Of a stretch of 64,000 nucleotides of DNA, positions 31,300 to 58,686 are shown piece by piece. The translations under genes and the position numbers were made by a program. The notes beneath the pieces were generated by a model, which did not search any database, was not told the origin of the DNA, and worked only from the letters and a program-made list of their open reading frames with translations. How positions within the stretch are numbered: position 1 is the stretch's first letter; every line of letters begins with the position of its first letter. Origin of the DNA: Candidatus Saccharimonadales bacterium (GTDB taxonomy: Bacteria; Patescibacteriota; Saccharimonadia; Saccharimonadales; Saccharimonadaceae). The stretch lies in the NCBI GenBank assembly GCA_038319685.1, contig JBBQDN010000005.1, forward strand, positions 15,277 through 79,276. The letters run 5' to 3'.

Positions 31300-32577
31300 C
31301 TACTGCACTGTTAATACGTCTGAGGTGTAGATGGCAGACTCAGTCTTGCCGGTGTTAGGATTTACCACATCGTGTACTACAAAAACCAGTTCCGAGTAAC
31401 CAGTACTATTACCTAGCGCTACTTTAGTAAAGTCGATTGAATAACTCGTTGGGTTTATTGGTTTGCGAATTGAATCTGCAAGAGGCGTAGCTGTCTCATA
31501 TGCAGGAATATCGTCTTGTTGAAAATCATGGCTGTTGTATGCATCGACGGCAGGTTGATATGCTCGAAGACCGACAAAGTTAATACTTTCAAGGTAAAGA
31601 CGTCCAAGCTGTTTGTTTTGCGAGCCAATATAATAAGCAAGGTAATCACGGAGTTTAACATTGTCGAGTACTTTCTGATCTGAGCTATCGACTGTTATAT
31701 CAACAGACTTTTCCAGGTCACTAGCTAGCGCAGGGTCGTCGAGTCGAATCTTAGCAATCGCATCCAGTACATTATTGCGATAAAGGAAAGTGGCCATTTG
31801 ATCAAACTCTTTCCCTGATGCCTCTTTGCTATATGTCAATGGATCCATTTCTGACCAATTTTTCGCAGCGATTTGATTAAAAGATGCTTGGGTTTCGGGA
31901 GATAGTTGATCCCAAAGTCCAGCCCCACCTTTAAGAGGATCATTTTCGGAAACAGTTGTTTCGGGCGTTGTCGTTACTGATGATCCCATATCGCCACTTG
32001 CTGGTACCCCTACTTCGGACGTAGGTGCAGGAGTGGATTCTATAACGACACTAGTTGCGCCTTGTTCGACAGTGCTAGGTGCGAGTGTGCCAGGGATGAC
32101 GGGCGCAGTGGCCGTCGGTTCTACATTTGACGGAGTAGATTCGTTACTAGACGTCGCTGCTTTGATGCCAACTGCTGCACCTACTGTAAATACAAGCGCA
32201 AGCGCACCAATACGAATTTTTGAACCAAGTGACCTAGGTTGTTTGTTGTGTTGTATATGAAGTGCTTCGAGATGAGCACGACCCGCTGCCATTTCAGCAT
32301 CCGTTATTGGGCCGGCACTTTCACTTAAATCCCCAGGAATAGCAAATGGAACTTCCGTATGAACATAGGAACCAACGCCACCTGGATTAGAAATGGTATC
32401 CGGAGCGAGCCAACCCTGATCAGCAACAGCATCAGGAAGACCAGTTTCTCTATAGTGTTTTGTTCCGGGAACCTCAATAGGTTTTCCGTCGGGTCCAATA
32501 AGACCCGAGTGGCGGGCTTGTTCCGCTGCACTACGTGATGATGGTTCTGGGTTTGGTCCTGATGTTTCAAAAGCCAT
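31300..32577 (-). CDS. bitopic membrane protein (cytoplasmic N-domain, 1 TM, S/T/P linker, ~210-aa ectodomain); VirB8-analogue candidate
   Basis: TM IGALALVFTVGAAVGI at ~aa 123-140. The topology is like VirB8/PrgL/TcpC. No sequence motif recognised. Confidence 0.35.
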   Translation of the reverse strand: MAFETSGPNPEPSSRSAAEQARHSGLIGPDGKPIEVPGTKHYRETGLPDAVADQGWLAPDTISNPGGVGSYVHTEVPFAIPGDLSESAGPITDAEMAAGRAHLEALHIQHNKQPRSLGSKIRIGALALVFTVGAAVGIKAATSSNESTPSNVEPTATAPVIPGTLAPSTVEQGATSVVIESTPAPTSEVGVPASGDMGSSVTTTPETTVSENDPLKGGAGLWDQLSPETQASFNQIAAKNWSEMDPLTYSKEASGKEFDQMATFLYRNNVLDAIAKIRLDDPALASDLEKSVDITVDSSDQKVLDNVKLRDYLAYYIGSQNKQLGRLYLESINFVGLRAYQPAVDAYNSHDFQQDDIPAYETATPLADSIRKPINPTSYSIDFTKVALGNSTGYSELVFVVHDVVNPNTGKTESAIYTSDVLTVQ

Positions 32578-32629
32578 GGTTTACAGTTCCTTGTGCGCTT
32601 ACTTGGGCACGTAATGTACTAATGCTTTT

Positions 32630-32658
32630 ACTATACACTATTTTTTAATAAAAAGCAA
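32630..32658 (-). promoter_or_regulatory. sigma70-like promoter upstream of the 425-aa gene
   Basis: On the minus strand: TTGCTT (32658-32653), 17-nt spacer, TATAGT (32635-32630). An AAGGAA RBS precedes ATG 32577. Confidence 0.35.
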
Positions 32659-32711
32659 CATGTTTATTGATATGTCAAGAATTGATTTTAAAAAACGGAT
32701 GTGTTTATGGA

Positions 32712-35318
32712 CTAAATACCAAGTCGGTCACGGATCTCAGGTTTAATGAGACGCAGGGTTTCAGGGCTGGACGTAAGGTTTCCTATGAGTTTCGCATACG
32801 CTACAGGATCTCCAGCTACAGGATCGGTAAGTTTATCAATTGCATGATGCTGCATTGTTGAGTTTGATGCGGCAAACTTATCGGATGCCAAGTTTCTCCA
32901 AGTCGCGATATCTTCATTGATTGTATTAAACGTTACTGTTGGACCCTTGGCGTTGTTAATCCAATCATCGAAGCTCTTTCCGGCCTTACGGATATCGCCA
33001 TTCATACCAAGTACTTCTTTGAAATCGAGTAGATCCTGAGTTGCAGGAGCGCTACTTTCGTAGGTTGTAATAATATCAGCAAGTTTTGCGATACCGGGTG
33101 GGCCATTTTTTGCGATGGTATTTGCATATGCGATGCGCTGAGATAATGTCGTCGACGTATTAAAAGCAGTCTCCAAACGGCCAATGTCCGTCGATAGCGC
33201 GTAGTCCATGGTGTCTTGAATGTTCTTTGTGTCCTCTACGTACGATTGACTAACGGTTGCCTTTGCTCTTGCGAGAACTGAGTTTTGGCCTTGTTCACCC
33301 ATAACTCCACCTGCGAGCACAAGCCGTATAGGATCCGTCTTGAGGGCATCTGCGAGGTCAATTTGTCCAGCACGTTCGGCTTGTTGTTTACGCATTCCTT
33401 GTATTGCAATAGACTGTGCGGTGACATGACTATCACTAACAAGGGTACTCATCGGTGTACCTGCGGCGTACGCAGTGCCACCACGACCACTTTCCCATTC
33501 TTTTGTTTCAGCGTCCCAAGTTGCTTTTGCGTCTTCTGTTTGGCGGGTGGCAAGGTGTTGGGTTAGTCTCTGTGCACGCATACCTGGGTTGGTAATCGCG
33601 TAGCGTTCCTGGTCCGCTTCAACTTGTGCTTCAGACATAGAGACATCTAATTTAGCAATGCGAAGATTCGTTTCATCAGCACGAACTCGGACATTACTGA
33701 GGCGCATATCGTTAAATGCCTTGTCTATAACAGCTTGAGCGGTATCTTTCTTAATACCTGCATGAGTCATACGATGGCTAGCGTCCTGGTAGCCCTTATC
33801 ACCCATACCGTGTGCTTCGGATTCGGCTTCGTAGGCTTTCTTCCATTGTTGTTCGCGCATATGTTTGACGTGTTTGCGCTGGGCACTGGCGCGGAAGGCG
33901 TTACGTTTTGGTGGGGTTGCAAGTGAGCGAGCTTTATGGTGGTCAGCCCGTTCTTTGCTCCAGTTACGGGTACGGTCTAAAATGCCCTTTTTCGGATTGT
34001 TGACCATACCGGCAATACGGCCAAGCAGTGAACCACTCAGTTTAATCAGGAGTGGTGTGATAACAACTGGAGCGATCTGCACCATCATACCCAGGATGAG
34101 AATAACGATTGAATCGGCGTTTTGAATAATCGCCGTTCCTGCCAGCTGCGATCCGCCGAATACGATCGAAAACATCGGGAACATGATCAGGAGGGTCATG
34201 AATGTATCTTTCCATTTATCGAATAATTTTTCAGTATTGGGTAAAAGGAATGCGACGAATGCGAGTGGTGAGAGGATGACAAGAATCGTGATAAGTGCCT
34301 GACGAGCGGCGAGCACGAGGATGGCGACGACTGCTGCGAGCAAGACAATGACCAGTCCTGGAAGGAGTAAGTAGATCGCAGCAGCAAATCCACCACCTGT
34401 TGCAACGATTGCCGAATGAACGGCGATTGCCCCTGCCCCGAGCGCTGTTGCACCACCGAGCACTGCAGCGGTCACGACTTCCCAACCGGTCACGTTCCAG
34501 CTATTCCCAGTGGTTCCGACGATTTGGTTACGAATCGAAATAAAGATATCTTGGATAGAATAGCCAAGGATATTTGACACGTCAACCGCAACCGAACAAA
34601 TCCAGTACGATATATTCACTAAAATAGCCGCGACGATGAGGCGCGGAAGTAGCTTCTTGATACCATAATTGGTCATCATCCCACCAACGAGTTGTGAGTA
34701 AATAATAATGAGGAATGCAATGACAAACGCAACGTTTGCGAAACTTTGCATGACTGACCAAGCACGGTAAAGTGCTGCCTGCTGATTTGTTTGCACCGGT
34801 CGCACTTCGAGGAAACTACTGATGATGCCAAACAGCCAGTCCATTGCTTTGGCGAGGAAATTGGTGACAGGACAGACAATCCAGCCGATACCATCGACCA
34901 CACAGCTTGTCGTGCTGGTTGTGGGACTTGCTGCTGACGGGGTGATATTAACGGTTGATGGTGATGATGGGTTGGTATAGACACCAGGCGGCGTGTAGTC
35001 ATAGGTGACATAGGTTGCGGCGGCTGCTGTCGGCGGATCGGTACCGGGTGCAAAATAAATAACGTAAGCTTTAGACAGAATTGCCGGGGCAATCGGTGCT
35101 GAATCGATAGAAGTATAGTATTTACTACCAGGAGTGATACCAAGGCCATCCGTAGCTGTTGCATCGGTCGGTCCAGTAAAGGTTTTACCGTCGTAACTGA
35201 TTGATTGACCTGTCCACGTAGCGTCGGCAGGAGCAGCATGCGTTGGCTGGACGGTAAAAAGGATACTTGAAAGGATAGCCAAGATGGCGGTCATGGCAAA
35301 AACAAACAACATTCGCAT
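32712..35318 (-). CDS. giant VirB6/TrbL-like polytopic T4SS channel protein, paralogue 2
   Basis: I chose ATG 35318 (MRMLFVFAMTAILAILSSILFTVQPTHA signal; AGGGGT RBS). The track's extra 75 aa run into the divergent promoter region. Contains motif CVVDGIGWIVCPV, at least 6 TM helices and a ~430-aa helical C-tail. Confidence 0.6.
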   Translation of the reverse strand: MRMLFVFAMTAILAILSSILFTVQPTHAAPADATWTGQSISYDGKTFTGPTDATATDGLGITPGSKYYTSIDSAPIAPAILSKAYVIYFAPGTDPPTAAAATYVTYDYTPPGVYTNPSSPSTVNITPSAASPTTSTTSCVVDGIGWIVCPVTNFLAKAMDWLFGIISSFLEVRPVQTNQQAALYRAWSVMQSFANVAFVIAFLIIIYSQLVGGMMTNYGIKKLLPRLIVAAILVNISYWICSVAVDVSNILGYSIQDIFISIRNQIVGTTGNSWNVTGWEVVTAAVLGGATALGAGAIAVHSAIVATGGGFAAAIYLLLPGLVIVLLAAVVAILVLAARQALITILVILSPLAFVAFLLPNTEKLFDKWKDTFMTLLIMFPMFSIVFGGSQLAGTAIIQNADSIVILILGMMVQIAPVVITPLLIKLSGSLLGRIAGMVNNPKKGILDRTRNWSKERADHHKARSLATPPKRNAFRASAQRKHVKHMREQQWKKAYEAESEAHGMGDKGYQDASHRMTHAGIKKDTAQAVIDKAFNDMRLSNVRVRADETNLRIAKLDVSMSEAQVEADQERYAITNPGMRAQRLTQHLATRQTEDAKATWDAETKEWESGRGGTAYAAGTPMSTLVSDSHVTAQSIAIQGMRKQQAERAGQIDLADALKTDPIRLVLAGGVMGEQGQNSVLARAKATVSQSYVEDTKNIQDTMDYALSTDIGRLETAFNTSTTLSQRIAYANTIAKNGPPGIAKLADIITTYESSAPATQDLLDFKEVLGMNGDIRKAGKSFDDWINNAKGPTVTFNTINEDIATWRNLASDKFAASNSTMQHHAIDKLTDPVAGDPVAYAKLIGNLTSSPETLRLIKPEIRDRLGI

Positions 35319-35496: not shown

Positions 35497-35904
35497 ATGA
35501 GCCTAAAACAAACAATAAAGATGTCACTACTAGGTACGGTCACCCTGGGTATAATTGGCCTATCGATTGGGACTACTCCGGCATTGGCACAGAGTCAGTG
35601 TGGTAAGGTAAATACTGCGATTATCACCTGTAGTCAACGAGAAACTGGTGACCTCAAAGACAGTGGTGTTTGGGGTATATTGATACTAGTCATTAATATT
35701 ATGACCGCCGGAATTGGTATATTGGCTGTTGGGGCGATTGCCTATGGGGCTATTTTGTATTCAACCGCCGGTGGAAGTGCTGAACAAACGAAAAAAGCAA
35801 TTACTGTTATTACAAATACGGTGATTGGGCTGGTTTGTTTTCTCTTTATGACCGCGATCCTTAATTTCCTGATTCCGGGAGGGATATTTAATGTCATACC
35901 GTAA
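35497..35904 (+). CDS. VirB2/TrbC-like T4SS pilin paralogue P1
   Basis: Signal ...IGTTPALA, a Cys pair (QSQCGKVNTAIITC), then a two-TM hairpin with loop YSTAGGSAEQTKKA. Confidence 0.55.
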   Translation: MSLKQTIKMSLLGTVTLGIIGLSIGTTPALAQSQCGKVNTAIITCSQRETGDLKDSGVWGILILVINIMTAGIGILAVGAIAYGAILYSTAGGSAEQTKKAITVITNTVIGLVCFLFMTAILNFLIPGGIFNVIP

Positions 35905-36595
35905 CGTCACCGTAAAATCACGAATTAAGAACTGGGTACTTGCCATATTTTTTGTTGCATCAACCGGGGGTGCACTGGTGACAACTGCCCTGCCTCAAAC
36001 GGCAAGCGCTGCATGTGCGACAAGTTTTTTCGGGATTCCCGCTTGGTATGACGGAATGATCGGTGGTGATTGTAGGGTGCTTGACCCGTCAAGTTTCCCC
36101 GGAGGTTTGTCGGGATTTATTTGGAGGATTGTCCTGAATGTTGTCGAGATTATTTTACTGGTGTCTGGCTATGTTGCTGCCGCGTTTATAATTGTTGGTG
36201 GGTTTAAATATATTACCAGTGCTGGATCGCCGGATGATTCAGTAAAAGCCAGAAAAACAATCATTAATGCAGTGATTGGGTTGGTGCTTTCGATGTCGTC
36301 GGTGGCGATTGTCAATGTCGTCACAACAACTGTTGTGGGTGGAGTAGATGCGACGGGCATTCCGACAATCAGTGCGGACGGCGTAACACTTGCTGCTATC
36401 CTTAACGCAGTGTATTTCTGGGCGGGTGCAATTGCCGTGCTGATGATCGCTATTGGCGGACTACTGTATGTTGTATCGGGGGGTACTGCGAGCAATATCA
36501 CCAAAGCAAAAGATACAATTATTTATGCATCGGTCGGGCTTATCATTATTATTATGGCGTTTACGATAACACAAGTCGTCATAGGAAGGTTTTAA
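35891..36595 (+). CDS. tandem double-domain VirB2/TrbC-like pilin P2
   Basis: Signal ...LPQTASA, a Cys pair, then two consecutive hairpin modules: GGFKYITSAGSPDDSVKARKTIINAVIG and GGLLYVVSGGTASNITKAKDTIIYASVG. Confidence 0.55.
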   Translation: MSYRNVTVKSRIKNWVLAIFFVASTGGALVTTALPQTASAACATSFFGIPAWYDGMIGGDCRVLDPSSFPGGLSGFIWRIVLNVVEIILLVSGYVAAAFIIVGGFKYITSAGSPDDSVKARKTIINAVIGLVLSMSSVAIVNVVTTTVVGGVDATGIPTISADGVTLAAILNAVYFWAGAIAVLMIAIGGLLYVVSGGTASNITKAKDTIIYASVGLIIIIMAFTITQVVIGRF

Positions 36596-39308: not shown

Positions 39309-39398
39309 GGAGAGGTGCCCGAGTGGTTTAAGGGAACGGTCTTGAAAACCGTCGTGCCAGCAATGGTACCGAGAGTTCGAATCTCTCCCTCTCCGCCA
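39309..39398 (+). tRNA. tRNA-Ser (anticodon TGA)
   Basis: Manual cloverleaf: acceptor GGAGAGG, anticodon stem ACGGT/ACCGT, loop CTTGAAA, long variable arm, GTTCGAATC T-loop, encoded CCA. Confidence 0.85.
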
Positions 39399-40851: not shown

Positions 40852-41259
40852 CTACACGTTCGTTCCGCCGCTCACACCAGTTGGTGAAAAGCTACCAATC
40901 ACAAAGTTGATCATTGCGTACGCAAATAGCGCCACCATCACGCCGATGATCGCATATAAAATCGTATTTTTGGCGGCGGTGATGGCGGTCGAATTACCAC
41001 CGGATACCACGTAGCGTAGTCCTCCGACGATAATCATAATAACTGACACCGCACCAATGGCATATAGCATGACGTTACTGATTGTTGTGAAAACACCAGC
41101 TGCACCGAACAAATCGACGACCTGCCCTGTGCCCTGTGCAGCCAGAGCGCCATCGGCGACAGACCCGCCGAACGCGCTTGCCATGGGTGCAATCAGGATA
41201 CTTAGGATAACCATAGTCACGCCAGAAATAGTGGCGAAGATAGTTTTGACTGATTTCAT
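40852..41259 (-). CDS. VirB2/TrbC-like T4SS pilin paralogue P6 (distal copy)
   Basis: I chose ATG 41259 (AAAGGAA RBS): MKSVKTIFATISGVTMVILSILIAPMASA signal and hairpin VGGLRYVVSGGNSTAITAAKNTILYAIIG. Closest to P5. Confidence 0.6.
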   Translation of the reverse strand: MKSVKTIFATISGVTMVILSILIAPMASAFGGSVADGALAAQGTGQVVDLFGAAGVFTTISNVMLYAIGAVSVIMIIVGGLRYVVSGGNSTAITAAKNTILYAIIGVMVALFAYAMINFVIGSFSPTGVSGGTNV

Positions 41260-41296
41260 CCAGGATTCCTTTCGTGGTTTAGATAATATATTTACC

Positions 41297-41324
41297 ATTA
41301 TAGCAAAAGACGTGAAATAGTCTA
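41297..41324 (-). promoter_or_regulatory. promoter of distal pilin P6
   Basis: On the minus strand: TAGACT, 16-nt spacer, TGCTATAAT (perfect -10 at 41302-41297 with upstream TG). Confidence 0.4.
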
Positions 41325-41417
41325 CCCTCCGCCCCTGTAGTGTGCTACAATAATTCGAGCACGGGAGAGTTATATATGGCAAAAAGCCACCCTATATACC
41401 CGCGCCGACGATCACAC

Positions 41418-41510
41418 GGAGGGGTACCCAAGTGGCTTAAGGGGATGGTTTGCTAAATCATTAGTCTGGGGAGACCTGGAGCGGGAGTTCGAATCTCCCC
41501 TCCTCCGCCA
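41418..41510 (+). tRNA. tRNA-Ser (anticodon GCT)
   Basis: Acceptor GGAGGGG, anticodon loop TTGCTAA, long variable arm, GTTCGAATC T-loop, encoded CCA. Confidence 0.85.
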
Positions 41511-41672: not shown

Positions 41673-42344
41673 CTATTTTAGTTCTTCTCGAAGCTTTGTT
41701 AAATCAAAGACGGTGAATAAATGATCCGTTTGACCAATGAGTTCTTCATTGAATAGTTGCTCTAGCGCTCTACTTGCGGTTTCTCTGTTCATATTTATCG
41801 AGTCTGCAATATCCTGATGTGTGATGGGGGCGTTAATAATAACTTTATTGTTATGTGAAGTGCCGAATCTTTCAGCAATAGAAAGAAGCTCGGCTATGAC
41901 TCTCCCTCGCGCAGACCTAAATTCAAGTATTTGTATACGTTGTGTGTAAACTGCTATGACATTTACTGTTTGGTTTAGGATTTCTTGGGTTAACCACATG
42001 TTTGTCCCCATTGCGATACGTAACTTATCTTTGGATGTTTTTATGACGGTCACATCATTCATTGCTTCGTAGAAAAGACCGGTAATGTGATTGCCATCTA
42101 GCGCCCACGGGAGGGGTATTAGCTCTCCTTCTTCATGGATCAGTAAAAGATTCGCATGACCATCAGCCGAAGTTGAATGTGATTTGACGAAGCCCTTTTT
42201 GATAAGATACACACCGTCTGGTTCATCATAGCCATTAACGATGGTTTCACCACCGACAAATTCTTCCGTCGTGCCATCACTGAAATACGAGAGTATACTC
42301 TTATCTTTTCTGGTCGTTGAACGAAAACGGTTGTGGTCTATCAT
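41673..42344 (-). CDS. Crp/Fnr-family transcriptional regulator
   Basis: N-terminal cNMP-binding beta-roll (GVYLIKKGFVK...GE) and C-terminal HTH ITHQDIADSINMNRETASRALEQL. Confidence 0.8.
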   Translation of the reverse strand: MIDHNRFRSTTRKDKSILSYFSDGTTEEFVGGETIVNGYDEPDGVYLIKKGFVKSHSTSADGHANLLLIHEEGELIPLPWALDGNHITGLFYEAMNDVTVIKTSKDKLRIAMGTNMWLTQEILNQTVNVIAVYTQRIQILEFRSARGRVIAELLSIAERFGTSHNNKVIINAPITHQDIADSINMNRETASRALEQLFNEELIGQTDHLFTVFDLTKLREELK

Positions 42345-42652: not shown

Positions 42653-43420
42653 ATGATTAAACCTGACATTATTGAAAAACTTGGACTATTTAATAACTCT
42701 GAGCTAAATATATTCTCGGTATATCTGGGTAGTGATTCGATCAAGGCACCAAGTAGCGGGTTTTTGCGTACCCAGTTTCACTCATTATTGCACCGTGACA
42801 TGGACTCGGTATCTCGACACACATACGCCCATGACATACATAATATAACTCGGTATCTCGATGGATATATTCCGTCAGCGAGAACTATCGCTTTATTTTC
42901 TTCTGGCGATCGACTATGGGAACAAGCGAGCCTGGAATACTCGCTTCCAATAGGTATAACCCTAGGTAATTCGCCCTACCTAAAACCGATACTTGGCTCT
43001 TTGGATCATTACTCAAAGTACATAGTACTGCTTGTTGATAGAGAAAAGCTTCGGATATTTACTGTCGATCAGGGTGAGATGGTAGATCATTCTGAGGTTT
43101 TGGATGATTCAGTCCCCCAGGTGTCTAAATCAACAGGGATGGAGTTTGCTGTTGGAAAGAGCGACGTTAATCAAAGGCATAACGACCTCCTTTTGCAGCG
43201 CCACATTGATTTACTGGCTAAATCAATCGTAAGATTTAATAATAAAGAACGAGTTAAATTTGTCATTATAGGGGGACATTCAGAACTATTCAAAAAAGTA
43301 TACGCATCACTACCTCCGGGTATCCGATCAAAGGTTGCGGGTACATTTGTGACAGAAGTCAATATTCCGCTTAGTGATATCATGAAGAAATCTAAACTAG
43401 TTGCGGCACAGGTTAGTTAA
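42653..43420 (+). CDS. hypothetical protein, possibly bacterial eRF1-like (baeRF) family
   Basis: N-terminal ...LNIFSVYLGSD and central YIVLLVDREKLRIFTV resemble patterns I associate with baeRF/eRF1-like families. Unverified. Confidence 0.3.
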   Translation: MIKPDIIEKLGLFNNSELNIFSVYLGSDSIKAPSSGFLRTQFHSLLHRDMDSVSRHTYAHDIHNITRYLDGYIPSARTIALFSSGDRLWEQASLEYSLPIGITLGNSPYLKPILGSLDHYSKYIVLLVDREKLRIFTVDQGEMVDHSEVLDDSVPQVSKSTGMEFAVGKSDVNQRHNDLLLQRHIDLLAKSIVRFNNKERVKFVIIGGHSELFKKVYASLPPGIRSKVAGTFVTEVNIPLSDIMKKSKLVAAQVS

Positions 43421-43535: not shown

Positions 43536-44090
43536 ATGAATAAGCTTAGTCATAAATTGAAACAACTAATCGTCACCGTCGCGTGCTTGATGTTCGTTCT
43601 TATTCCCACAACCGTCGCTGCTTCGCCGTTTGGCCAAGGAGTCTTTGGTGCTGATGTGCCATTTGGGTCGGTCACAAGCCTGGCGATTAACCTTGGGGGG
43701 AACGTATCACTTAGTTTAAGCCCGAGTGGGCCAAACCTTAGCGGAACAGGGTCGCATGTTATTACGGTGACATCGACCGATGTTGTGGGCTACCAACTAT
43801 TTGTTCGCAGTAACGGGAATAGTAATATGGTTAATGGCAGTGCAACCATCCCGGCAAGTGGCAATAGCACGGGGGCAGCGCTCAGTCTCAATACTTGGGG
43901 GTTTAATACCGATGGAACCAGTAACTTTATCGGTATGACAACGACACCACGGCTTATCAAAGACACGACCGGACCGGCAAAGACGGGCGACACCACGACT
44001 GTTACCTACGGGGCACTTACCGACGCAGTGCAATCTGCGGGCCAGTATACTACGACTGTGATTTATACTGCTATCGCAGAGAATCAGTAG
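43536..44090 (+). CDS. secreted beta-rich protein, WxL- or SCPU-like
   Basis: Signal ...PTTVAASP, internal VVGYQLFVRS, and C-terminal AGQYTTTVIYTAIA strand, like the terminal G-x-Y...hydrophobic strand of WxL/SCPU proteins. Confidence 0.35.
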   Translation: MNKLSHKLKQLIVTVACLMFVLIPTTVAASPFGQGVFGADVPFGSVTSLAINLGGNVSLSLSPSGPNLSGTGSHVITVTSTDVVGYQLFVRSNGNSNMVNGSATIPASGNSTGAALSLNTWGFNTDGTSNFIGMTTTPRLIKDTTGPAKTGDTTTVTYGALTDAVQSAGQYTTTVIYTAIAENQ

Positions 44091-44970
44091 TCGTCGGTTT
44101 TTTAGGCTGATGCCTAATACGTCGACGCCAACGAGCGAACATGACGATACCCCATCCTGCAACAATTACCACTGCATAAAACCATAACGGTGTGTATACG
44201 ACAATTCCCTCGACAACGACGGGTTGTGATATATCAGTTGTATAGCCGTAGGTCACTTTGTATATACCAGGAAACAGTGGAGCTTGTACTGACTCATCGA
44301 CATGTCGCACGACGCCAGGCAAAAGGATATGACTAACAGACACGGTGCTTTTATTGGTCCACGGGCCACCTATCGATGCGTGTACGGTCGCAGTGTAGTG
44401 AACGTTACCAGTGTTTGCGATATCGAGTGAGAATGGGATACGGTCACCGACAACAAAGGTGGTGATAGTATGTGACCGCAGTGTATTTGTTTGCGTTGTG
44501 TTGCCTCGTATAGTCATATATAGAGGTGCGGCTACTTGGATCCGGCTACTGACACCTTTTTGTTTGACCGTCGCACCGGCGATGATAGTGTAGTATTTCC
44601 CTCCTGGTGCTGTACGCGCAGGCGGCGTCACACTATAGGTGACACGTTCGTTTTTCCCCGGTTCGAGTAGAACGACGGTTTTACTAAAATGCAACCAGTT
44701 GTCTGTGACGTCACTAAACGTGTAGTTGTAGGAATAGTCCGAAACCGAGAATTCCTCGACAGATAGCGTGACGGTGAGCGGCGACTGGGTATAGTTTGCG
44801 ACCATTACTTCCCCCAGTGCTGTTTTACCGGCGTCAACATCCAGAAAATTGCGCGGGGGCGAAATGAATAGCCCCCTGTTTGTCGTTGATTGGGCGTTTG
44901 CAGTAGTCGGACAAAGGCCGACCGACACAATCATGATAATGATCGCGGCCACAAATAGTATGCGTTTCAA
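44071..44970 (-). CDS. DUF916/DUF3324-like Ig-fold cell-surface protein with C-terminal TM anchor
   Basis: Signal ...TTANA, FISPPRNFLDVDAGKTALGEVMVANYTQSPLTVTL, C-terminal TM WFYAVVIVAGWGIVMFA plus an RRRIRH tail. Confidence 0.4.
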   Translation of the reverse strand: MKRILFVAAIIIMIVSVGLCPTTANAQSTTNRGLFISPPRNFLDVDAGKTALGEVMVANYTQSPLTVTLSVEEFSVSDYSYNYTFSDVTDNWLHFSKTVVLLEPGKNERVTYSVTPPARTAPGGKYYTIIAGATVKQKGVSSRIQVAAPLYMTIRGNTTQTNTLRSHTITTFVVGDRIPFSLDIANTGNVHYTATVHASIGGPWTNKSTVSVSHILLPGVVRHVDESVQAPLFPGIYKVTYGYTTDISQPVVVEGIVVYTPLWFYAVVIVAGWGIVMFARWRRRIRHQPKKPTTTDSLR

Positions 44971-46365: not shown

Positions 46366-47055
46366 TTATGCGTCGACCCATGCAGTTGTAGCAGTGGGCG
46401 AAAATGGGCCGATGAACGACGCCGAACCGCCAGTAAAGCCAATATCATCAAAACAAAAATTACTAATAACACTGTTGGTGGTGAGTTTACCAAATTCCGC
46501 GCTGGTCGCATTTGTCGTCCCAAGGTCAAGAGTAGAGGTAGTAAAGGTACTTTCAACAGGGCTTGCCGAATCTCCTACATAGTAGGCAAAAGAGGCTGAT
46601 CCTGTTGTCGAGGTGTCGACAGTAATGCCAAGTTCGATGCGGTACCAGACGCCAGAACTTAGGGGATTAGTAAAGGTAAATATACCAACCCCTGAGGTGT
46701 CTGTCAACTGGAGCCTATACGTGCCAGAGGTATTAATGCATGTACAGGTTGTGGTACTGTTTCGTATGGTTGCGATGCGAGCTGCAGCCGATGGTGTACC
46801 AAGCATACAGAAATAAAATCGAATGGCAGCGTTAATATCGTTTTCACCATTGAACCTCATGGCCATTGTACCACCCGTAGTGTCCGAGCTAGCATTGTAG
46901 GACTGAGACCCATGCATTACCGACAGGCCGCTATATTTAATTGACCCTGTTCCTGAAACGGCAACAACATTAAACGCATCACCCGACCCAGTCTGGTTAA
47001 TAGCCAAATTGGCTCCGACCGTTCCACCCTCTGCGTTGTTATTATGGTATGCCAT
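46366..47055 (-). CDS. signal-less beta-rich protein, LamG/concanavalin-like jelly-roll candidate
   Basis: No signal peptide. Pattern ...GVWYRIELGITVDTSTTGSASFAYYVGD resembles LamG-type lectin folds. Confidence 0.3.
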   Translation of the reverse strand: MAYHNNNAEGGTVGANLAINQTGSGDAFNVVAVSGTGSIKYSGLSVMHGSQSYNASSDTTGGTMAMRFNGENDINAAIRFYFCMLGTPSAAARIATIRNSTTTCTCINTSGTYRLQLTDTSGVGIFTFTNPLSSGVWYRIELGITVDTSTTGSASFAYYVGDSASPVESTFTTSTLDLGTTNATSAEFGKLTTNSVISNFCFDDIGFTGGSASFIGPFSPTATTAWVDA

Positions 47056-48495: not shown

Positions 48496-51198
48496 CTACC
48501 ATGTTTGGTTCTTAAACACTATATATGGCATGGCGGCGCTTCGCATGTTGTTCTGGGTAATTCGGGACATGGCAATGTTGGTCGGTAAGGCCGATGAACT
48601 GGCACTATAGAAACCGACGCCTTCCTGGATACCCTGTGTAGCGTTGATGGCTTGGCCCAGAATTCCTTGGTATGACGAGCTAATATTCGTAAATAGCATA
48701 TTCGAGGCGGTAAACCAGTTCGCGCCGGTTGTCGTGCTTTGCGACCACATACCTAGCCAGTAGTTGCCTTCTGACATGCTGATGTTTAGTGGCATTGTCA
48801 GTCCACGCAGTCCTGACACCACACTATAGCTACCGTTTGACGTATTTGTCCACTGATAACTGGCGCTTCCCGATGACTGTGTCACGAGACTTAAGGTAGA
48901 GCCACTTGCGGTAAAGATACCTGCAGCAATAGACAGCGCACCAGCATGTGAGCTGTTTGACGACGAACTCATACTAATACTGACCAGCTGCATGAATTGG
49001 GAAGCATTAACAAAAGCGTTGGCCTGGAGCTTATAGAAATAAACCGACCCGTTCCCCATTTGGGTATTCGACAATGAACCATACTGTAGTTGATTGGGTT
49101 CCCAGTTACTTATCGTCCCGGCAGCCGGTGCACCGATACTTATGGTCGAACCGTTCGTAAATATACTGACGCCACCAGTTGCTGACATACTGGAGGTCTG
49201 AGGGACGAATATATTAAATGACTGACTAGCACCGTTGGTAGAAGATACAATTGTAATTGCACCCCCACCTTCAACGATGTTAGCCGTGCCGCTAGTGTAA
49301 GTAGTCTGTGAATTGCCCAGGGCAATTCCTCCACCTCCGCCCCCGCCGGCAGCTGACGCGGTAATAGTAGAGCCGTTTAGGCCAAACGATACGCCGTTAG
49401 CATTGCTAAAAACAATTGATCCAAGGTTCCCACTGGCTGTCCCAGCCGAGAAGTTAACGGGTGACGGTGCCGCGGTGCCACCCGAAATCATAATTGATCC
49501 GGCGGAATACCCCACCGATACATTGCCGGCACCGTTAAAGCTGAGCGTACGGGCGTCCATTGTGCTGGACGAAGATTGTCCGGTCGTGTTGCCAACAGCG
49601 TAGCCACCAACAGCCTGGTTGGTCTGATTAAACGAAGCCGATGCAGTAATTGTTGATGCGTTCCCGCCAAACGTAATGTTGTTACTATTGGCAAAACTAA
49701 TGTTACCTGACGACCCAAGGATTGATACCATGTTTTGTGTTTGAACAGTTTGACTCGTAATACCGTTATGTGACGCGGTCAGTGTCTGTCCGTTTAGGCC
49801 AAATGACAGACCGTTCAGGTTTGACAGGCGGATAGTACCGGTTGTGACACTGTTGACACCGTCATATATAGCTTGGATAAGGCTGGCAGTTTGGTTGGTC
49901 TGTGTTGGTACGGATATAAACATCGAACTGGCTGAAAATCCAATGCTGGCCGCACCGAGGCCGTTAAAACGCATACTTCGGGCGTCAAACGTCCCGCTAG
50001 ACGTCAGTGACGTGTTATTGCCGGCCGAAAAGCCGATGGTTTGGTTGGTCTGTGTTGGTACTGAGATCTGGAATGAACCGTTGGTATACCCGACACTGGC
50101 CGCACCGAGCCCATTAAAGCTTATGGACCGTGCATCGCGCGTCCCAGAACTACTTTGCGTGGTATTACCTAGTGCATACAGACCAACAGTCTGGTTTGTT
50201 TGTGCCGCAGCCGATATGGTTAATGTATTACCCACGGAATCGGTTGCCTGGGACAGTGTAATATTATTGCCACCCGCGAAAATCATTTGGTTCGATACGG
50301 TACCAGTGGTGCCGAGCGTATTACCGAGTGTGCTTATGCCGATCGAAAAAGCTGGCGCGCCGATGCTAACGGTATTGCCATTGGTAAATAAGCTTAGTAT
50401 GCCGCTGACCGAGAGGCTAGAAAGCGCTGGCACCGAAAAGTTAAACGACTGGCCGGCACCATTGACAGAAGATGCGATAGTGATGGCGCCTCCAGCCTCA
50501 AATAGATTAGCCGTGCCGCTCGTATAGGTAGTCTGTGAGTTCGCCAGGGCGATCCCGCCACCGCCACCACCAGTAATGCCTGAAATCTGGATAGAACCGT
50601 TACTGTAGCCCACGCTGACTCCACCCAGGCCATTGAAACTTAACGACCGAGCATCACGCGTGCCAGAACTACTTTGCGTGGTATTACCTAGTGCATATAT
50701 GCCAACAGTCTGGTTGGTCTGAGCCACGGTTTGCGCACCAGATATCTGAATCGATCCGTTCGAATAGCCGACGGTTGCACCACCCAGGCCATTGAATAGT
50801 AGACTATTTGCATTTAGAACCGTTGACGAATTTTGTGTCGTGCCGCCAGAGGCATACATCGTTATATTTTGGTTCGTTTGGTTTGGTCCTGATATCGTCA
50901 GCGCGTTACCTGCTTGCGACAACGTGATATTATTGCCACCGACCAATGTTAATGTTCCCGAACTAACCTGAGCCATAACACCTGTCGTGTTGCCACCAAG
51001 TGTCAGGTTATGAAGGTTTTGTGTCTGAACTGTCTGGTTAGCTGCAGATATGCTAATTGTTGCTGAAGATCCGTTGATACTTTGTGAGAGTGTGACATTG
51101 TTCCCACCAGCGAACACAATACCACGGTTAACAGTACCGGTCGTACCCGACGTGTTTCCGATATTGCTCATGCCAAATTTAGGAGGAATGTAGGTCAT
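48496..51198 (-). CDS. 900-aa Cys-free repetitive beta-helix/fibre-like protein
   Basis: No signal peptide. About 7 units of ~49 aa beginning QTNQ (QTNQTVG.YALGNTTQSSSGTRDARS.SFNGLG..SVGYSNGS.QIS). Two ~75-aa GGGGGG(G)IAL.NSQTTYTSGTAN blocks. Unique ~210-aa W/Y-rich C-terminal domain. Confidence 0.65.
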   Translation of the reverse strand: MTYIPPKFGMSNIGNTSGTTGTVNRGIVFAGGNNVTLSQSINGSSATISISAANQTVQTQNLHNLTLGGNTTGVMAQVSSGTLTLVGGNNITLSQAGNALTISGPNQTNQNITMYASGGTTQNSSTVLNANSLLFNGLGGATVGYSNGSIQISGAQTVAQTNQTVGIYALGNTTQSSSGTRDARSLSFNGLGGVSVGYSNGSIQISGITGGGGGGIALANSQTTYTSGTANLFEAGGAITIASSVNGAGQSFNFSVPALSSLSVSGILSLFTNGNTVSIGAPAFSIGISTLGNTLGTTGTVSNQMIFAGGNNITLSQATDSVGNTLTISAAAQTNQTVGLYALGNTTQSSSGTRDARSISFNGLGAASVGYTNGSFQISVPTQTNQTIGFSAGNNTSLTSSGTFDARSMRFNGLGAASIGFSASSMFISVPTQTNQTASLIQAIYDGVNSVTTGTIRLSNLNGLSFGLNGQTLTASHNGITSQTVQTQNMVSILGSSGNISFANSNNITFGGNASTITASASFNQTNQAVGGYAVGNTTGQSSSSTMDARTLSFNGAGNVSVGYSAGSIMISGGTAAPSPVNFSAGTASGNLGSIVFSNANGVSFGLNGSTITASAAGGGGGGGIALGNSQTTYTSGTANIVEGGGAITIVSSTNGASQSFNIFVPQTSSMSATGGVSIFTNGSTISIGAPAAGTISNWEPNQLQYGSLSNTQMGNGSVYFYKLQANAFVNASQFMQLVSISMSSSSNSSHAGALSIAAGIFTASGSTLSLVTQSSGSASYQWTNTSNGSYSVVSGLRGLTMPLNISMSEGNYWLGMWSQSTTTGANWFTASNMLFTNISSSYQGILGQAINATQGIQEGVGFYSASSSALPTNIAMSRITQNNMRSAAMPYIVFKNQTW
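49131..51171 (-). repeat. in-frame coding tandem repeats (~147-nt unit plus a ~225-nt duplicated block)
   Basis: For example, cagaactactttgcgtggtattacctagtgcata occurs at both ~50143-50176 and ~50663-50696. ggtctgtgttggtac occurs at ~49899 and again at ~50048. Confidence 0.7.
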
Positions 51199-52139: not shown

Positions 52140-52190
52140 ATGCCTCTTATTAATAAAGTATAAGATATCGTTATATGTAAGTCAAAGCGA

Positions 52191-53252
52191 TTATGGTTTC
52201 AGGGACACGCGGGGGTGTTTTTTGTGTCGGATGAGGGTAAAGGTTTTGCGGACTATTGACCAAATGCTAAATAATAACAGCCCAATAATGATGATTACAC
52301 CAGCGATGATTTTCCAGGGCAGTACCCAGAACGTTACTTCGCCTTCGATAGGAATGTCACGACTGCCATCGTTATACACACCAACAAGTTTTGCAGTGTA
52401 TTGGCCAATTCTAAAACTGGTAATTTTAGACCAATCCCACACCTCCCCCGTTGTGCCGTCGGTGTTGGTTTTAAACGACGGAAATCCGTCCCCCCAAGTT
52501 GTTTCAAGGCTTCGAATGCTTCCGGGTAAAATGTACCCTTTGTTTTCGTTGACGGCGAGTGTTGCAATCGGGCTTGCCCCATCGCTGCCTCGTTGGATAA
52601 ATATATTGCCATACGGTTGAAGAATACTATTACCTGTATTTTTAAATCGTACTTTTATGCGCGAAGGGAGATATTCATAGATTTGTTTGTCTGCTTCTAG
52701 TTCGACAACGTCTAGCTTACGAGTTGCACCAGGGCGATCAACATTCAGAAGTGTAAACACGGCTACCGATCCTTTGATAAGCCGTCCACTTTCAGTTGGC
52801 TGTGGAGTGTTCTGACGACTGATGACGAGCGCAAAAGAATAACTAAATCCTGTGTCTTTTGGCAGCGCAATTCGTACTTTTTGCGTGAACCATTGACCAG
52901 GTTGGACGGTAAACGATGGACTGGCAAAACTAACCCATTGACCAATATCAGGCGGGATAGTGTCATCAAGGCTGACGGCACCGGTCGTACTGTTAAAGGT
53001 AAAACTTCGTGAGTCTATTTTTAAATCTTCGGGATTAGTGCCTGTATTTCTAATTTTTAATTCAAGTTCGGTTGTTTGCCCAGGTTTTATTGTCGTGACC
53101 AGAGGTGATGGGCTAACCTGTAGCGAAAACTCCCCTGCTGTCTGTGCGGACGCGTTTGGAGATAGTAAAACGGATGAGGCGGTGATGACACCGCATAATA
53201 ATAGTCCAAAAACTCCCCACGCCCGGTTAAATTGTGCAAAACGACGTAACAT
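52191..53252 (-). CDS. DUF916/DUF3324-like Ig-fold cell-surface protein, tandem paralogue B
   Basis: Signal ...PNASAQT, FSLQVSPSPLVTTIKPGQTTELELKIRNTG, WVSFASPSFTVQPGQWFTQKVRIALPKDTGFSYSFALVIS, C-terminal TM plus basic tail. Confidence 0.45.
   Translation of the reverse strand: MLRRFAQFNRAWGVFGLLLCGVITASSVLLSPNASAQTAGEFSLQVSPSPLVTTIKPGQTTELELKIRNTGTNPEDLKIDSRSFTFNSTTGAVSLDDTIPPDIGQWVSFASPSFTVQPGQWFTQKVRIALPKDTGFSYSFALVISRQNTPQPTESGRLIKGSVAVFTLLNVDRPGATRKLDVVELEADKQIYEYLPSRIKVRFKNTGNSILQPYGNIFIQRGSDGASPIATLAVNENKGYILPGSIRSLETTWGDGFPSFKTNTDGTTGEVWDWSKITSFRIGQYTAKLVGVYNDGSRDIPIEGEVTFWVLPWKIIAGVIIIIGLLLFSIWSIVRKTFTLIRHKKHPRVSLKP
52423..52484 (-). repeat. 62-nt tract identical to 53520-53581 (tandem paralogues)
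   Basis: attttagaccaatcccacacctcccccgttgtgccgtcggtgttggttttaaacgacggaaa is identical in both genes by eye. It encodes the shared FPSFKTNTDGTTGEVWDWSKI segment. Confidence 0.85.
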
Positions 53253-54325
53253 TACCGAGTGCCACCTTTGACTGTTTGTTTTTCATATTTTGGTATAGCT
53301 GACTGGGCGGCAAGCGCTATTCTGACTGCTTTTTGTGTTCGGCGTTGTGCTATCTTACGTCCAATAAACCAGACAATAACAATAAATGTGATCAGTGCGA
53401 GAATCGCCCGCCATGGTATGACCCAAAATGTCACCGCAGCTTCGAGTGGCACGTCACGCTCGCCGTCGTTATACACACCAACAAGTTTTGCGGTGTATTG
53501 GCCAATTCGAAGGTCGGCGATTTTAGACCAATCCCACACCTCCCCCGTTGTGCCGTCGGTGTTGGTTTTAAACGACGGAAACCCATTATCCCATTTTGTT
53601 GTGAGTGTTCGACTAGTCCCAGGCAATATATAGCCTTTATTGTCATTGACGGCAAGTGCTGCGATCGGGTTTGTTCCTTCACTGCCTCGTTGGATGAATA
53701 TGTTACCGTACGGTTGGACAATACTATTACCACTGTTTTTAAATCGTACCTTTATATCGGCCGGGATATATTCGTATAGTTGTTTCGTGGTTTCAAGTTC
53801 AACAACATCAAGCTTACGAACCGCACCCGGTCGATCAACGTTCACGAGTGTAAAAACAGCAACCGATCCTTTAAGAAGTCGCCCGCTTTCGGTTTTTTGT
53901 TGCACCGTTTTTGGACTAATGATGAGCGCGAACGAATAGCTAAATCCCGTATCTTTCGGAAGAGATATTTTTACTTTTTGAGTGAACCATTGACCAGGTT
54001 GAACAGTAAAATCGGGTGAACTAAAACTGATCCAGTCCTTGATTTCAGGGGGACTTGTGTCGTCAACCTGGACTTCACCAGTTTCGTTATTTATATGAAA
54101 ACTACGAGGTGACATCGTGAGGTTTTGGACCTCAAGGCTATTACTACGAACTTTGAGTTCGATTTCGGTCGTTTGTCCTGGTTTTATTGTCGTCACAAGA
54201 GGAGAAGGCGTCACTTGGATTGAGAATTCACCAGTTGACTGCGCAAGGACGGGATCCGATATGACTGCTTGTGAGGCAATTACCATCATAATCCCAAGCC
54301 CAATAGAGAACAAAAACTTTTTCAT
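53252..54325 (-). CDS. DUF916/DUF3324-like Ig-fold cell-surface protein, tandem paralogue A
   Basis: Same architecture as 52191-53252 and colinear throughout. 1-nt overlap with the downstream paralogue. Confidence 0.45.
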   Translation of the reverse strand: MKKFLFSIGLGIMMVIASQAVISDPVLAQSTGEFSIQVTPSPLVTTIKPGQTTEIELKVRSNSLEVQNLTMSPRSFHINNETGEVQVDDTSPPEIKDWISFSSPDFTVQPGQWFTQKVKISLPKDTGFSYSFALIISPKTVQQKTESGRLLKGSVAVFTLVNVDRPGAVRKLDVVELETTKQLYEYIPADIKVRFKNSGNSIVQPYGNIFIQRGSEGTNPIAALAVNDNKGYILPGTSRTLTTKWDNGFPSFKTNTDGTTGEVWDWSKIADLRIGQYTAKLVGVYNDGERDVPLEAAVTFWVIPWRAILALITFIVIVWFIGRKIAQRRTQKAVRIALAAQSAIPKYEKQTVKGGTR

Positions 54326-54381: not shown

Positions 54382-55428
54382 TTAAAACAGGCCGGCACCG
54401 ATGATCGTGAGCGTGTCTGTGTAATCCGATGCAGCTGCAGTTGTTGCATCGATGGCAACATTGTTTTTGATCGTCAACACAGCGGTATTAGCCGATCCTG
54501 TTGAGGTTGCGAGTGGCCGTAGTGACGTGTCAAGTCCGCCGCCCTGTCCTGCACCAGAACCGACAAATGGTGCGGCGACGGTAATTGTACCGGAACCACC
54601 CACCTGGCTACTGGTAATACCTGTGTTATATCCAAGCGTACCGGCAACGAGTGTGCTATTCGTACCTGGTGTTGTCGATGCAATAGTACTTGCTGCAGAT
54701 GCAGAGGTCAGACCAGTATTGGCATCTTTTGCCCACACCATCCAACCATTTTTGGCATTTGTATTTACGGTTGCAGTACGCGGTGTTGGACTGGTGATAA
54801 CCGAAGCGGTTGATAGTGACCCGAGTGCATCGGTATTAGCACTAAGTGCGAACGAGAAAATTGCAGGGACTGTCGCGGATACGACAACTTGATCGTCGGT
54901 AATGCTGGCAGTTGCATACGATTCAGTATCGATGACCGCTGGGACGGAGGTGCGAGTAGAAACGCTTCCGAGGTTAGAGCTGGTTGCAGATGATTTGATA
55001 CTTACGGCGGCAGTGTTTGCCCAGTTAAAACAGTAGAGTGTACCAACAGTAAGGTCGCCGCTAGGGAATGTGACGACTTGTCCAGTGACATTGGTCGCCG
55101 TTGCTATGCTTGGCCATGCAGTTCCGCCGGTTGGCCAGGCAGTATTGGTGGTGTTGATGGTAAAGTTCGCAGATGTACCGAGCGTGTAGCCAGTAGGGAA
55201 TGTTACTTGCACGTCGGCTTCTGTTGCAACGGTCGCAGGCTGTGCACAAACAGTTCCCGTTGTTGCTGTGCTAATTTTCATACGGTCAAAACGAACAGCG
55301 ACCTTTGTGAGTGCTGCAGCGTGTGTTATTTGTGCGTAAATAATCGGCGCGATAAGCGCGAACACGATAATGCCAGCCATAGTTATTAGTCGTAAGTTTA
55401 CTGTCTTGTGACTATATGTCATGTTCAT
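54382..55428 (-). CDS. secreted T/A/S-rich beta protein, WxL- or SCPU-like
   Basis: Anchor/signal ...IYAQITHAAA, internal NAKNGWMVWAKDAN, C-terminal ASDYTDTLTIIGAGLF strand. Confidence 0.35.
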   Translation of the reverse strand: MNMTYSHKTVNLRLITMAGIIVFALIAPIIYAQITHAAALTKVAVRFDRMKISTATTGTVCAQPATVATEADVQVTFPTGYTLGTSANFTINTTNTAWPTGGTAWPSIATATNVTGQVVTFPSGDLTVGTLYCFNWANTAAVSIKSSATSSNLGSVSTRTSVPAVIDTESYATASITDDQVVVSATVPAIFSFALSANTDALGSLSTASVITSPTPRTATVNTNAKNGWMVWAKDANTGLTSASAASTIASTTPGTNSTLVAGTLGYNTGITSSQVGGSGTITVAAPFVGSGAGQGGGLDTSLRPLATSTGSANTAVLTIKNNVAIDATTAAASDYTDTLTIIGAGLF

Positions 55429-57925: not shown

Positions 57926-58002
57926 GCACCCGTAGCTCAGCTGGATAGAGCGTCGGCTTGCGGAGCCGAAGGTCATAGGTTCAAATCCTGTCGGGTGTAC
58001 CA
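57926..58002 (+). tRNA. tRNA-Arg (anticodon GCG)
   Basis: Manual fold: acceptor GCACCCG/CGGGTGT, D-loop AGCTGGATA (A20), anticodon stem TCGGC/GCCGA, loop TTGCGGA, T-loop TTCAAAT, A73, encoded CCA. Confidence 0.75.
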
Positions 58003-58598: not shown

Positions 58599-58686
58599 TG
58601 GCGGAGAGAGAGGGATTCGAACCCTCGGTGGGTTACCCCACACCGCTTTTCGAGAGCGGCCAGTTAAACCACTCCTGCATCTCTCC
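58599..58686 (-). tRNA. tRNA-Ser (anticodon CGA)
   Basis: The reverse complement gives GGAGAGA acceptor, anticodon stem CCGCT/AGCGG, loop CTCGAAA, long variable arm, GTTCGAATC, encoded CCA. Confidence 0.85.

Follow-up and report, generated by a model that had tools for sequence, protein, structure and literature searches.

How ultrasmall, episymbiotic Patescibacteria recognise other cells and attach to them is little understood beyond type IV pili, type IV secretion systems (T4SS) and a few adhesins (PMC10633639). The present study concerns a gene for a repeat protein of 900 amino acids (aa), hereafter the fibre, located in a 64,000-nucleotide (nt) stretch of DNA (the window) from a Candidatus Saccharimonadales bacterium (contig JBBQDN010000005.1, positions 15,277 to 79,276). 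The window is part of a bacterial chromosome, as it carries the genes for DnaA and valyl-tRNA synthetase along with four tRNA genes. The fibre gene belongs to a run of minus-strand genes separated by gaps of 6-27 nt and encoding, in order, a 238-aa protein (p238), the fibre, a 467-aa protein (p467), a 229-aa protein, a glycosyltransferase (GT)-like protein, a methyltransferase (MT)-like protein and a 299-aa anchored protein (Table 1). The C-terminal domain of the fibre, or head, recurs in a large set of proteins from bacteria and phages, nearly always next to relatives of the two putative enzymes.

Gene and repeat organization

An earlier examination of this DNA (the sequence-only reading) had described a Cys-free repeat protein at this position without stating its strand. 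The open reading frame (ORF) occupies exactly these coordinates on the minus strand: it begins with ATG and comprises 900 codons and a stop, and an upstream stop codon precludes extension. The product contains no cysteine and only 26 charged residues, and is rich in Ser (16.2%), Gly (14.3%), Thr (11.9%) and Asn (10.0%). The motif QTNQ occurs six times and QTVQTQN twice; Gly6 and Gly7 stretches begin at residues 210 and 618, respectively. Overall, the protein consists of four types of repeat unit followed by a unique domain of 208 aa, where all six tryptophans reside, much as the sequence-only reading had it (a Trp-rich C-terminal domain of about 210 aa).

Relatedness between units was scored by unit-by-unit local alignment against 200 shuffles, BLAST self-comparison being uninformative. 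The five B units lie pairwise 14-32 z units above the shuffles (B2 and B3, for example, are identical at 41 of 47 positions). The two Gly-initiated blocks (C1 and C2; 55/74 identical, z = 31) and the two copies of GNT.GTTGTV (A units; 26/45 identical, z = 16) are genuine duplications, as had been proposed. The number of QTNQ consensus units had been overestimated at about seven: only B1-B5 fit, the sixth QTNQ unit (D1) being of a separate type, related to E.

At the DNA level, the gene contains one exact repeat of 35 nt (B2 versus B3), in keeping with the earlier remark that some copies are identical over more than 30 nt. The longest repeats measure 146 nt (82% identity) and 131 nt (76%), and Tandem Repeats Finder detected no tandem array in the gene. 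Mismatches between these copies fall at the third codon position in 21 of 27 and 24 of 32 cases, which indicates that the copies are old and held by protein-level selection rather than generated by recent slippage. Because the copies are this divergent, and because three independent samples gave identical assemblies of the closest homolog (P0002, 899 aa), mis-assembly of the array appears unlikely. The possibility that the gene is the target of a diversity-generating retroelement was considered and rejected: the mismatches are not adenine-specific and mostly affect third codon positions (the search for a reverse transcriptase was not exhaustive). The gene also contains a 227-aa antisense ORF (window 49844-50527, plus strand), probably a by-product of its biased, repeated coding sequence.

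Table 1. Features of the fibre gene and of the surrounding locus (window coordinates).
Feature	Position	Strand	Remarks
Fibre gene	48496..51198	minus	900-aa Cys-free mosaic-repeat protein; no signal peptide or transmembrane (TM) segment
Shaft, residues 1-692	49123..51198	minus	Units A1-D0-B1-B2-C1-A2-B3-B4-D1-D2-B5-E-C2
Units by residue, first half			A1 9-54, D0 55-106, B1 107-159, B2 160-209, C1 210-283, A2 284-332
Units by residue, second half			B3 333-382, B4 383-432, D1 433-482, D2 483-524, B5 525-574, E 575-617, C2 618-692, head 693-900
B1-B2, residues 107-209	50572..50880	minus	QTNQ...YALGNTT...DARS.SFNGLG...SVGYSNGSIQISG units
B3-B4, residues 333-432	49903..50202	minus	Exact 35-nt stretch common to B3 and B2
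B5, residues 525-574	49477..49626	minus	B-type unit
C1, residues 210-283	50350..50571	minus	Gly6-initiated block of ~74 aa; internal copy of neck unit
C2, residues 618-692	49123..49347	minus	Gly7-initiated neck unit; directly before head in most family members
Head, residues 693-900	48499..49122	minus	Predicted jelly-roll beta-sandwich; family-defining; all six Trp
p238, 238 aa	51205..51921	minus	Signal-less; kept in Saccharimonadales loci, nearly absent from viral loci
p467, 467 aa	47082..48485	minus	Signal-less; variable slot; no counterpart in syntenic L001 or L004; no phage match
229-aa protein	46366..47055	minus	Signal-less, variable; 53% identical to L001 counterpart; weak phrog_14065 match
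GT-like protein, 241 aa	45593..46318	minus	Conserved fibre partner; 84-92% identity in syntenic relatives, 39% to copy of phage MW202524
S-adenosylmethionine (SAM)-MT-like protein, 199 aa	44983..45582	minus	Second conserved partner; 76-85% identity in relatives, 38% to copy of phage MW202524
299-aa surface protein	44071..44970	minus	Signal peptide and C-terminal TM anchor; last gene of run; syntenic
184-aa secreted protein	43536..44090	plus	Convergent with gene run; syntenic in Saccharimonadales; WxL-like label tentative
Two tandem paralogous anchored surface proteins	52191..54325	minus	353 and 357 aa; signal peptide and C-terminal TM; weak fn3_5 matches; upstream flank
348-aa secreted protein	54382..55428	minus	Syntenic upstream flank gene
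Sigma-70-like promoter match	52157..52185	minus	In 270-bp gap upstream of p238; candidate operon start, consensus match only

A protein family defined by its head domain

The fibre has no match in Pfam, NCBIfam, PADLOC or the sequences of the Protein Data Bank (PDB) and a single, marginal one among the PHROGs, and no description of such a family was found in the literature searched. The impression that the repeats belong to no recognised family was thus borne out. Relatives are nonetheless numerous. A word-indexed search with the fibre returned more than 1,657 homologs; among the top 120, 87 have the head at their very C-terminus. The same type of search with the head alone yielded 11 proteins only. 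When a head profile was scored exhaustively against 1.84 billion cluster representatives, 2,196 proteins (approximately 2,200 clusters at 50% identity) were retrieved at E<=1e-3 and 603 at E<=1e-30. Proteins bearing the head are between 181 and 1,649 aa long; in all of the 150 best matches listed from the 2,196 representatives, it is C-terminal. In the metagenome collection, no relative of the head was closer than 55% identity. Judged from these sequence comparisons, the head defines a large, previously unannotated protein family.

Reading the architectures of 120 homologs with hidden Markov models (HMMs) of the four unit types revealed shuffled mosaics of the same units, with 0 to 14 B units per protein and a C unit usually preceding the head. 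The window fibre reads A-A-B-B-C-A-B-B-D-D-B-D-C-head in this analysis and its closest homolog A-C-A-A-B-B-D-A-A-D-B-A-C-head, while some other members carry arrays of 22-25 A units. Such shuffling shows that unit order and number change by recombination over evolutionary time. The idea, put forward in the sequence-only reading, that repeat number is labile therefore holds on the evolutionary time scale; ongoing slippage finds no such backing, given the mostly synonymous differences between copies, the lack of a DNA tandem array and the identity of P0002 in three samples. Six homologs (P0004, P0006, P0007, P0027, P0037 and P0055) consist almost only of A units, 14-25 in tandem, and reach 1,553 aa. 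Two of these, P0006 and P0007, have a Cys/His-rich N-terminus, and P0006 carries a precomputed Pfam flag for a prohead protease (PF04586).

Predicted structure

A model of the full-length monomer shows a confident head and a shaft with predicted local distance difference test (pLDDT) values below 50. At low confidence, the shaft appears as a series of regularly spaced beta-hairpins, each with a predicted NG-turn, at the conserved end of the units. A beta-helix, which had been suggested from the periodicity, does not emerge from this model: the hairpins are isolated, and the fibre has no Pfam match to a beta-helix signature. One match in the BFVD collection does carry the label "parallel beta-helix repeat"; the BFVD matches of the full-length model include proteins of uncultured Caudovirales and a mycobacteriophage minor tail protein.

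The head modelled by itself, from 74 sequences, is a long-stranded beta-sandwich (mean pLDDT 86, predicted TM-score 0.81). Its top Foldseek match in the PDB is gp25 of cyanophage A4 (9JWB chain Z; E 2e-4, TM-scores 0.44/0.49 over approximately 200 residues), followed by the central fibre gp20 of mycobacteriophage Douge (8ZDP; TM-score 0.43) and the Bxb1 tail tip (9D93; 0.42). Pgp3, TNF-like lectins, CBM6 and viral jelly-rolls rank lower. The fold comparison thus points, if remotely, to carbohydrate-binding modules (CBMs) and fibre-tip domains of phages and, together with the presence of homologs in phage virion modules (see below), agrees with the original view of a fibre shaft topped by a C-terminal binding head. 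As modelled, the head has a jelly-roll/CBM-like fold of the phage-fibre-tip kind and forms a new family at the sequence level.

A4 gp25 is a trimeric capsid protein, an auxiliary cement protein whose body is a carbohydrate-binding module and for which a host-binding role has been proposed (PMC12002296). It differs from the fibre, to which it is 15% identical in sequence, in that it is capsid-bound, has 201 aa, carries an N-terminal anchor and lacks a repeat shaft. Domains of the Douge central fibre bind mycobacterial surface glycans (PMC13033339). Like Douge gp20 and the Bxb1 protein, the fibre is elongated, signal-less and modular, bears a distal C-terminal beta-sandwich head (Foldseek probability 1.0), and has homologs in phage structural modules. 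Unlike them, it is encoded by a chromosome with no virion genes nearby, its units (A to D, 45-75 aa) match no described fibre repeat, no sequence similarity is detected, and the TM-scores only reach about 0.42-0.43. By analogy with the phage fibres that it resembles, the shaft may be a trimer. The fibre has no Pfam match to the Peptidase_S74 chaperone domain, its head being predicted as a beta-sandwich.

The fibre and its two partners in phages

Within an annotated phage collection, the match to the fibre is a 598-aa protein of MW202524, a circular 42.6-kb podovirus. Besides the same N-terminal A-unit motif, this protein has more A units and a head homologous to that of the fibre. Next come a methyltransferase, a GT ("has synthase") and a second methyltransferase; the GT and this second methyltransferase have their counterparts in the window (identities in Table 1). 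The trio sits between capsid/glycosyltransferase genes and tail-accessory genes; it accounts for all of the matches to the window (3 of 33 MW202524 proteins tested). The same phage (locus L006) carries, at 31626-33805, genes annotated in the record as nicotinate phosphoribosyltransferase and phosphoribosyl pyrophosphate synthetase; these could serve as auxiliary metabolic genes in a host whose nucleotide and cofactor metabolism is reduced.

The association extends well beyond this phage. IMG/VR contains 77 viral loci with the head and 377 stretches with the GT; GT and MT both lie within 10 kb of 67 of the 77 heads, and the MT accompanies the GT in 80 of 80 loci. On one contig (L164), whose GT is 78% identical to that of the window, sugar-nucleotide enzymes and GTs are followed by a tail-fibre-like protein, a 481-aa family member, the GT, the MT, and tail and internal-virion proteins. 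From gene order, the trio is a phage virion module in both phage genomes inspected, MW202524 and L164. The linkage of fibre, GT and MT, almost always kept, is also seen in Patescibacteria chromosomes.

Such kinship would allow for a defensive function, with the chromosomal fibre occupying or blocking a receptor on the bacterium and so excluding superinfecting phages. The degree of GT identity to phage copies (up to 78%) suggests that these phages infect the same host group, and a fast-evolving fibre between conserved flanks (see below) would fit an arms race. However, chromosomal and phage heads are only 25-47% identical, the fibre has neither a PADLOC match nor an export signal, and the locus shows no link to known defence genes. 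We hold a decoy or receptor mask of this kind to be improbable.

A resident chromosomal locus

The genomes that supplied the named homologs and the syntenic loci are metagenome assemblies of Candidatus Saccharimonadales (Saccharibacteria). Since the full-length fibre alignment offers no usable conserved stretches, 80 reference-genome loci were collected with the GT as anchor. The MT is linked in 77 of them, the shaft in 61 and p238 in 40. None contains capsid, terminase or portal genes in their MW202524 versions. The genes on either side of the window run encode proteins with signal peptides, several of which also have a C-terminal TM anchor. The anchored ones recur throughout the Saccharimonadales loci, and flank synteny holds in L001, L004 and L007-L049. 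Conversely, none of 157 viral loci has the flank genes, and p238 turns up in just one of them. The C-terminal portion of p238 (about 90 aa) matches the C-terminal domains of phage proteins, three of which carry tail-fibre, tail-spike or baseplate annotations.

When the window is compared with its closest relative, identity reaches 92% for the GT and 85% for the MT, against about 65% for the fibre, whose N-terminal half is rearranged. Nonsynonymous divergence (dN) is lowest in the GT (0.047), higher in the head (0.136) and highest in the shaft (0.36-0.42); synonymous divergence (dS) is saturated, so that dN/dS is bounded only. Fibre, head and GT are under purifying selection, and the fibre evolves 3-9 times faster than the GT. 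These data bear on the trivial explanation that the gene is a low-complexity ORF or an assembly artefact without function. Its biased composition and the long antisense ORF might have raised such a suspicion, which is effectively refuted by purifying selection, conserved synteny, the more than 1,657 homologs, the confidently modelled head and the identical homolog in three assemblies.

Pfam scans of the neighbouring genes showed no integrase or terminase near the fibre (att-like features were not looked for otherwise), and the window contains no further phage gene, placing the fibre gene outside any virion structural module. A prophage was rejected on these grounds: only three of the 33 MW202524 proteins match the window, there are no mobile-element hallmarks and the flanks are syntenic. 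By sequence, the locus is a gene cluster resident in the chromosome, fast-evolving at its core and set within a syntenic surface-protein locus.

Putative modification by the partner enzymes

The two partner genes encode putative enzymes. The 199-aa protein matches a PHROG of SAM-dependent methyltransferases (5e-7) and scores 20.5 bits against Methyltransf_11, near the cut-off of 21.2, with the phage copy reaching 21.9 bits. The 241-aa protein has a PHROG glycosyltransferase match (3e-5); the window copy has no Pfam match even at E<=10, and a profile of the protein found no match in the PDB. Phage and Paceibacterota copies align with Glycos_transf_2 at E 0.09-0.16 (12-13 bits, for a cut-off of 23.3).

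The near-obligate linkage with GT and MT, in phages and cells alike, suggests that the enzymes modify the fibre. The fibre contains 41 N-X-S/T sequons, in excess of the 24.9 +/- 4.0 expected from shuffles, several of them at positions conserved in the family. Phage virions can be glycosylated, and some adhesins receive their glycans in the cytoplasm, for example HMW1 with HMW1C and serine-rich repeat adhesins with GtfA/B. The window resembles such systems in that an S/T/N-rich, adhesin-like protein with excess sequons lies beside dedicated cytoplasmic enzymes that would modify it. It departs from them on several counts: the 241-aa enzyme is neither GT41 nor GT4 and is barely recognisable as a GT, two-partner and accessory-Sec export systems as well as an LPXTG motif are lacking, and modification is predicted only.

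A Cys-free, acidic-poor, S/T/N-rich protein with excess sequons, adjoining modifying enzymes and surrounded by surface-protein genes could also be an S-layer or surface-coat glycoprotein of the bacterium that phages have copied. One homolog (P0018) is indeed named "S-layer family protein" in NCBI. NCBIfam release 20 does not reproduce this name, either for P0018 or for the window fibre, which has no signal peptide and no SLH or other cell-wall-binding domain. Moreover, the number and order of units are hypervariable, unlike what is seen in a lattice-forming protein, and homologs occupy phage tail and virion modules. We judge this explanation very improbable.

Export and possible function

In other Patescibacteria (Paceibacterota and relatives), 11 of 20 chromosomal copies carry a conserved N-terminal signal-anchor ahead of a YEGRLTD-type domain, a short shaft and the head; these copies, too, lie beside GT and MT. 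Since they are predicted to be membrane-anchored, an extracellular role for the head in cells appears supported. Among these non-Saccharimonadales loci (L056-L083), the ORF just upstream of the GT encodes a protein of 500-590 aa in which the signal-anchor and 'YEGRLTD.SG' domain are conserved ('MSIxDGKV...VVGVLMVVQVALSVVLSISLAGHLIWPE...AAAG') and which ends in the same head domain.

Taken together, the data give about an even chance to the interpretation that the fibre gene encodes a receptor-binding fibre of the phage type and has settled as a resident gene in the chromosome of this Saccharimonadales (Saccharibacteria/TM7) bacterium. The most likely function, with our judgement here again evenly balanced, is that of a modified adhesion or receptor-binding fibre. 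The shaft would trimerise in the manner of phage fibres and the head would bind a cell-surface glycan. The GT-like protein and the methyltransferase would glycosylate and methylate the Asn/Ser/Thr-rich fibre in the cytoplasm, and the product would be displayed on the episymbiont, or released from it, as an adhesin directed towards another cell.

Several points weigh against this interpretation. The fibre, p238, p467 and the 229-aa neighbour all lack a signal peptide or TM segment, and an N-terminal hydrophobic segment occurs in none of 33 N-terminally complete Saccharimonadales copies (nor in any of 121 viral copies found with the head profile). Surface display would therefore need some other export route. 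The fold matches of the head are remote (TM-scores 0.42-0.49, E 2e-4 to 3e-3), the shaft model is of low confidence and represents a monomer only, and the glycosyltransferase assignment, drawn from sequence matches, is weak. Transfer may have run from phage to cell or from cell to phage.

The first of these points is what one would expect if the bacterium kept a stock of virion fibres, made in the cytoplasm and mounted on infecting or resident phages or phage-like particles, with a shift in host range as a consequence; the locus might also be a long-lived remnant of such a module. The Saccharimonadales copies are signal-less like all 121 N-terminally complete viral copies and unlike the anchored Patescibacteria copies. 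Fibre, GT and MT have homologs in phage structural modules, p238 shares its C-terminal domain with proteins annotated as phage tail fibres and tail spikes, and the N-termini of some homologs presumably resemble phage fibre adaptors. Yet no capsid, portal, terminase, tail or integrase gene (at least in the MW202524 versions) is present in the window or the 80 chromosomal loci. Synteny with cellular surface-protein genes extends across approximately 40 species, p238 (with its one exception) and the flank genes are foreign to the viral loci, and purifying selection speaks against a decaying remnant. A virion stock is in our view an unlikely explanation.

Returning to the resident adhesion fibre, a more far-reaching version of it is that Saccharimonadales have domesticated a virion-fibre module and evolved it, with chromosome-specific partners such as p238, into a Sec-independent, enzyme-modified attachment organelle that works with the anchored surface complex in recognising host cells. 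We consider this version doubtful; a variant of it would have the cell-encoded fibres mounted on phage particles. If such an organelle existed, episymbionts and phages would draw on one shared, recombining pool of receptor-binding units.

A large family with a clear domain grammar, a confidently modelled head, an obligate enzyme pair and a conserved chromosomal locus has until now been absent from Pfam, NCBIfam and the PDB. The family is linked directly to phages of the same bacterial group, and its members are candidates for host or receptor recognition in these bacteria and in their phages. Their mosaic units suggest a shared, recombining toolkit for specificity switching, while signal-less fibres within a surface-protein locus pose an export puzzle.

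Surrounding genes

The anchored paralogs upstream of the run (52191-53252 and 53252-54325) are arranged so that the stop of one overlaps the start of the next, and they are syntenic across Saccharimonadales. The layout of the flanks recalls the WxL/DUF916 (Csc-type) clusters exemplified by SEML1_0626-0627 of Southlakia epibionticum, with small and large secreted proteins accompanied by proteins with a signal peptide, Ig-like domains and a C-terminal TM segment. In cultivated Saccharibacteria, structure-based annotation names such neighbours DUF916 and WxL. The Southlakia cluster differs in carrying RCC1/Fn3 proteins instead of fibres. The Pfam search gave the flank proteins no WxL or DUF916 match at E<=1, returning only weak fn3_5 and NPCBM_assoc matches, so that the likeness rests on gene layout and on the structure-based annotation in Southlakia.

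A Gram-positive-type T4SS cluster lies near dnaA, at window positions 18293-41382. It includes a protein with GH3, Phage_lysozyme2 and C39-like domains (18293-20668), a VirB4/TraG-like ATPase (24258-26153), PrgI (27014-28042), pilins (35891-36595 and 40852-41382) and three unannotated proteins of 943-1030 aa. The layout matches that of a cluster described as essential in Southlakia (PMC10633639). Coupling of fibre export to this T4SS was considered, the pilin genes being 3-10 kb away, and set aside as pure speculation, as the adjacency is not kept in L001 or L004.

Further from the fibre gene, an 860-aa protein (window 5583-8165) combines a C-terminal PIG-L (GlcNAc-PI de-N-acetylase-type) domain with 600 unannotated N-terminal residues. 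A baeRF family-10 (release-factor-like) protein (42653-43420) adjoins a Crp-type cNMP-binding regulator (41673-42344), the pair sitting between the fibre locus and a tRNA-Ser gene. The region of surface-protein and fibre genes as a whole is bracketed by four tRNA genes (39309-39398, 41418-41510, 57926-58002 and 58599-58686), three for tRNA-Ser (tga, gct and cga) and one for tRNA-Arg (gcg).

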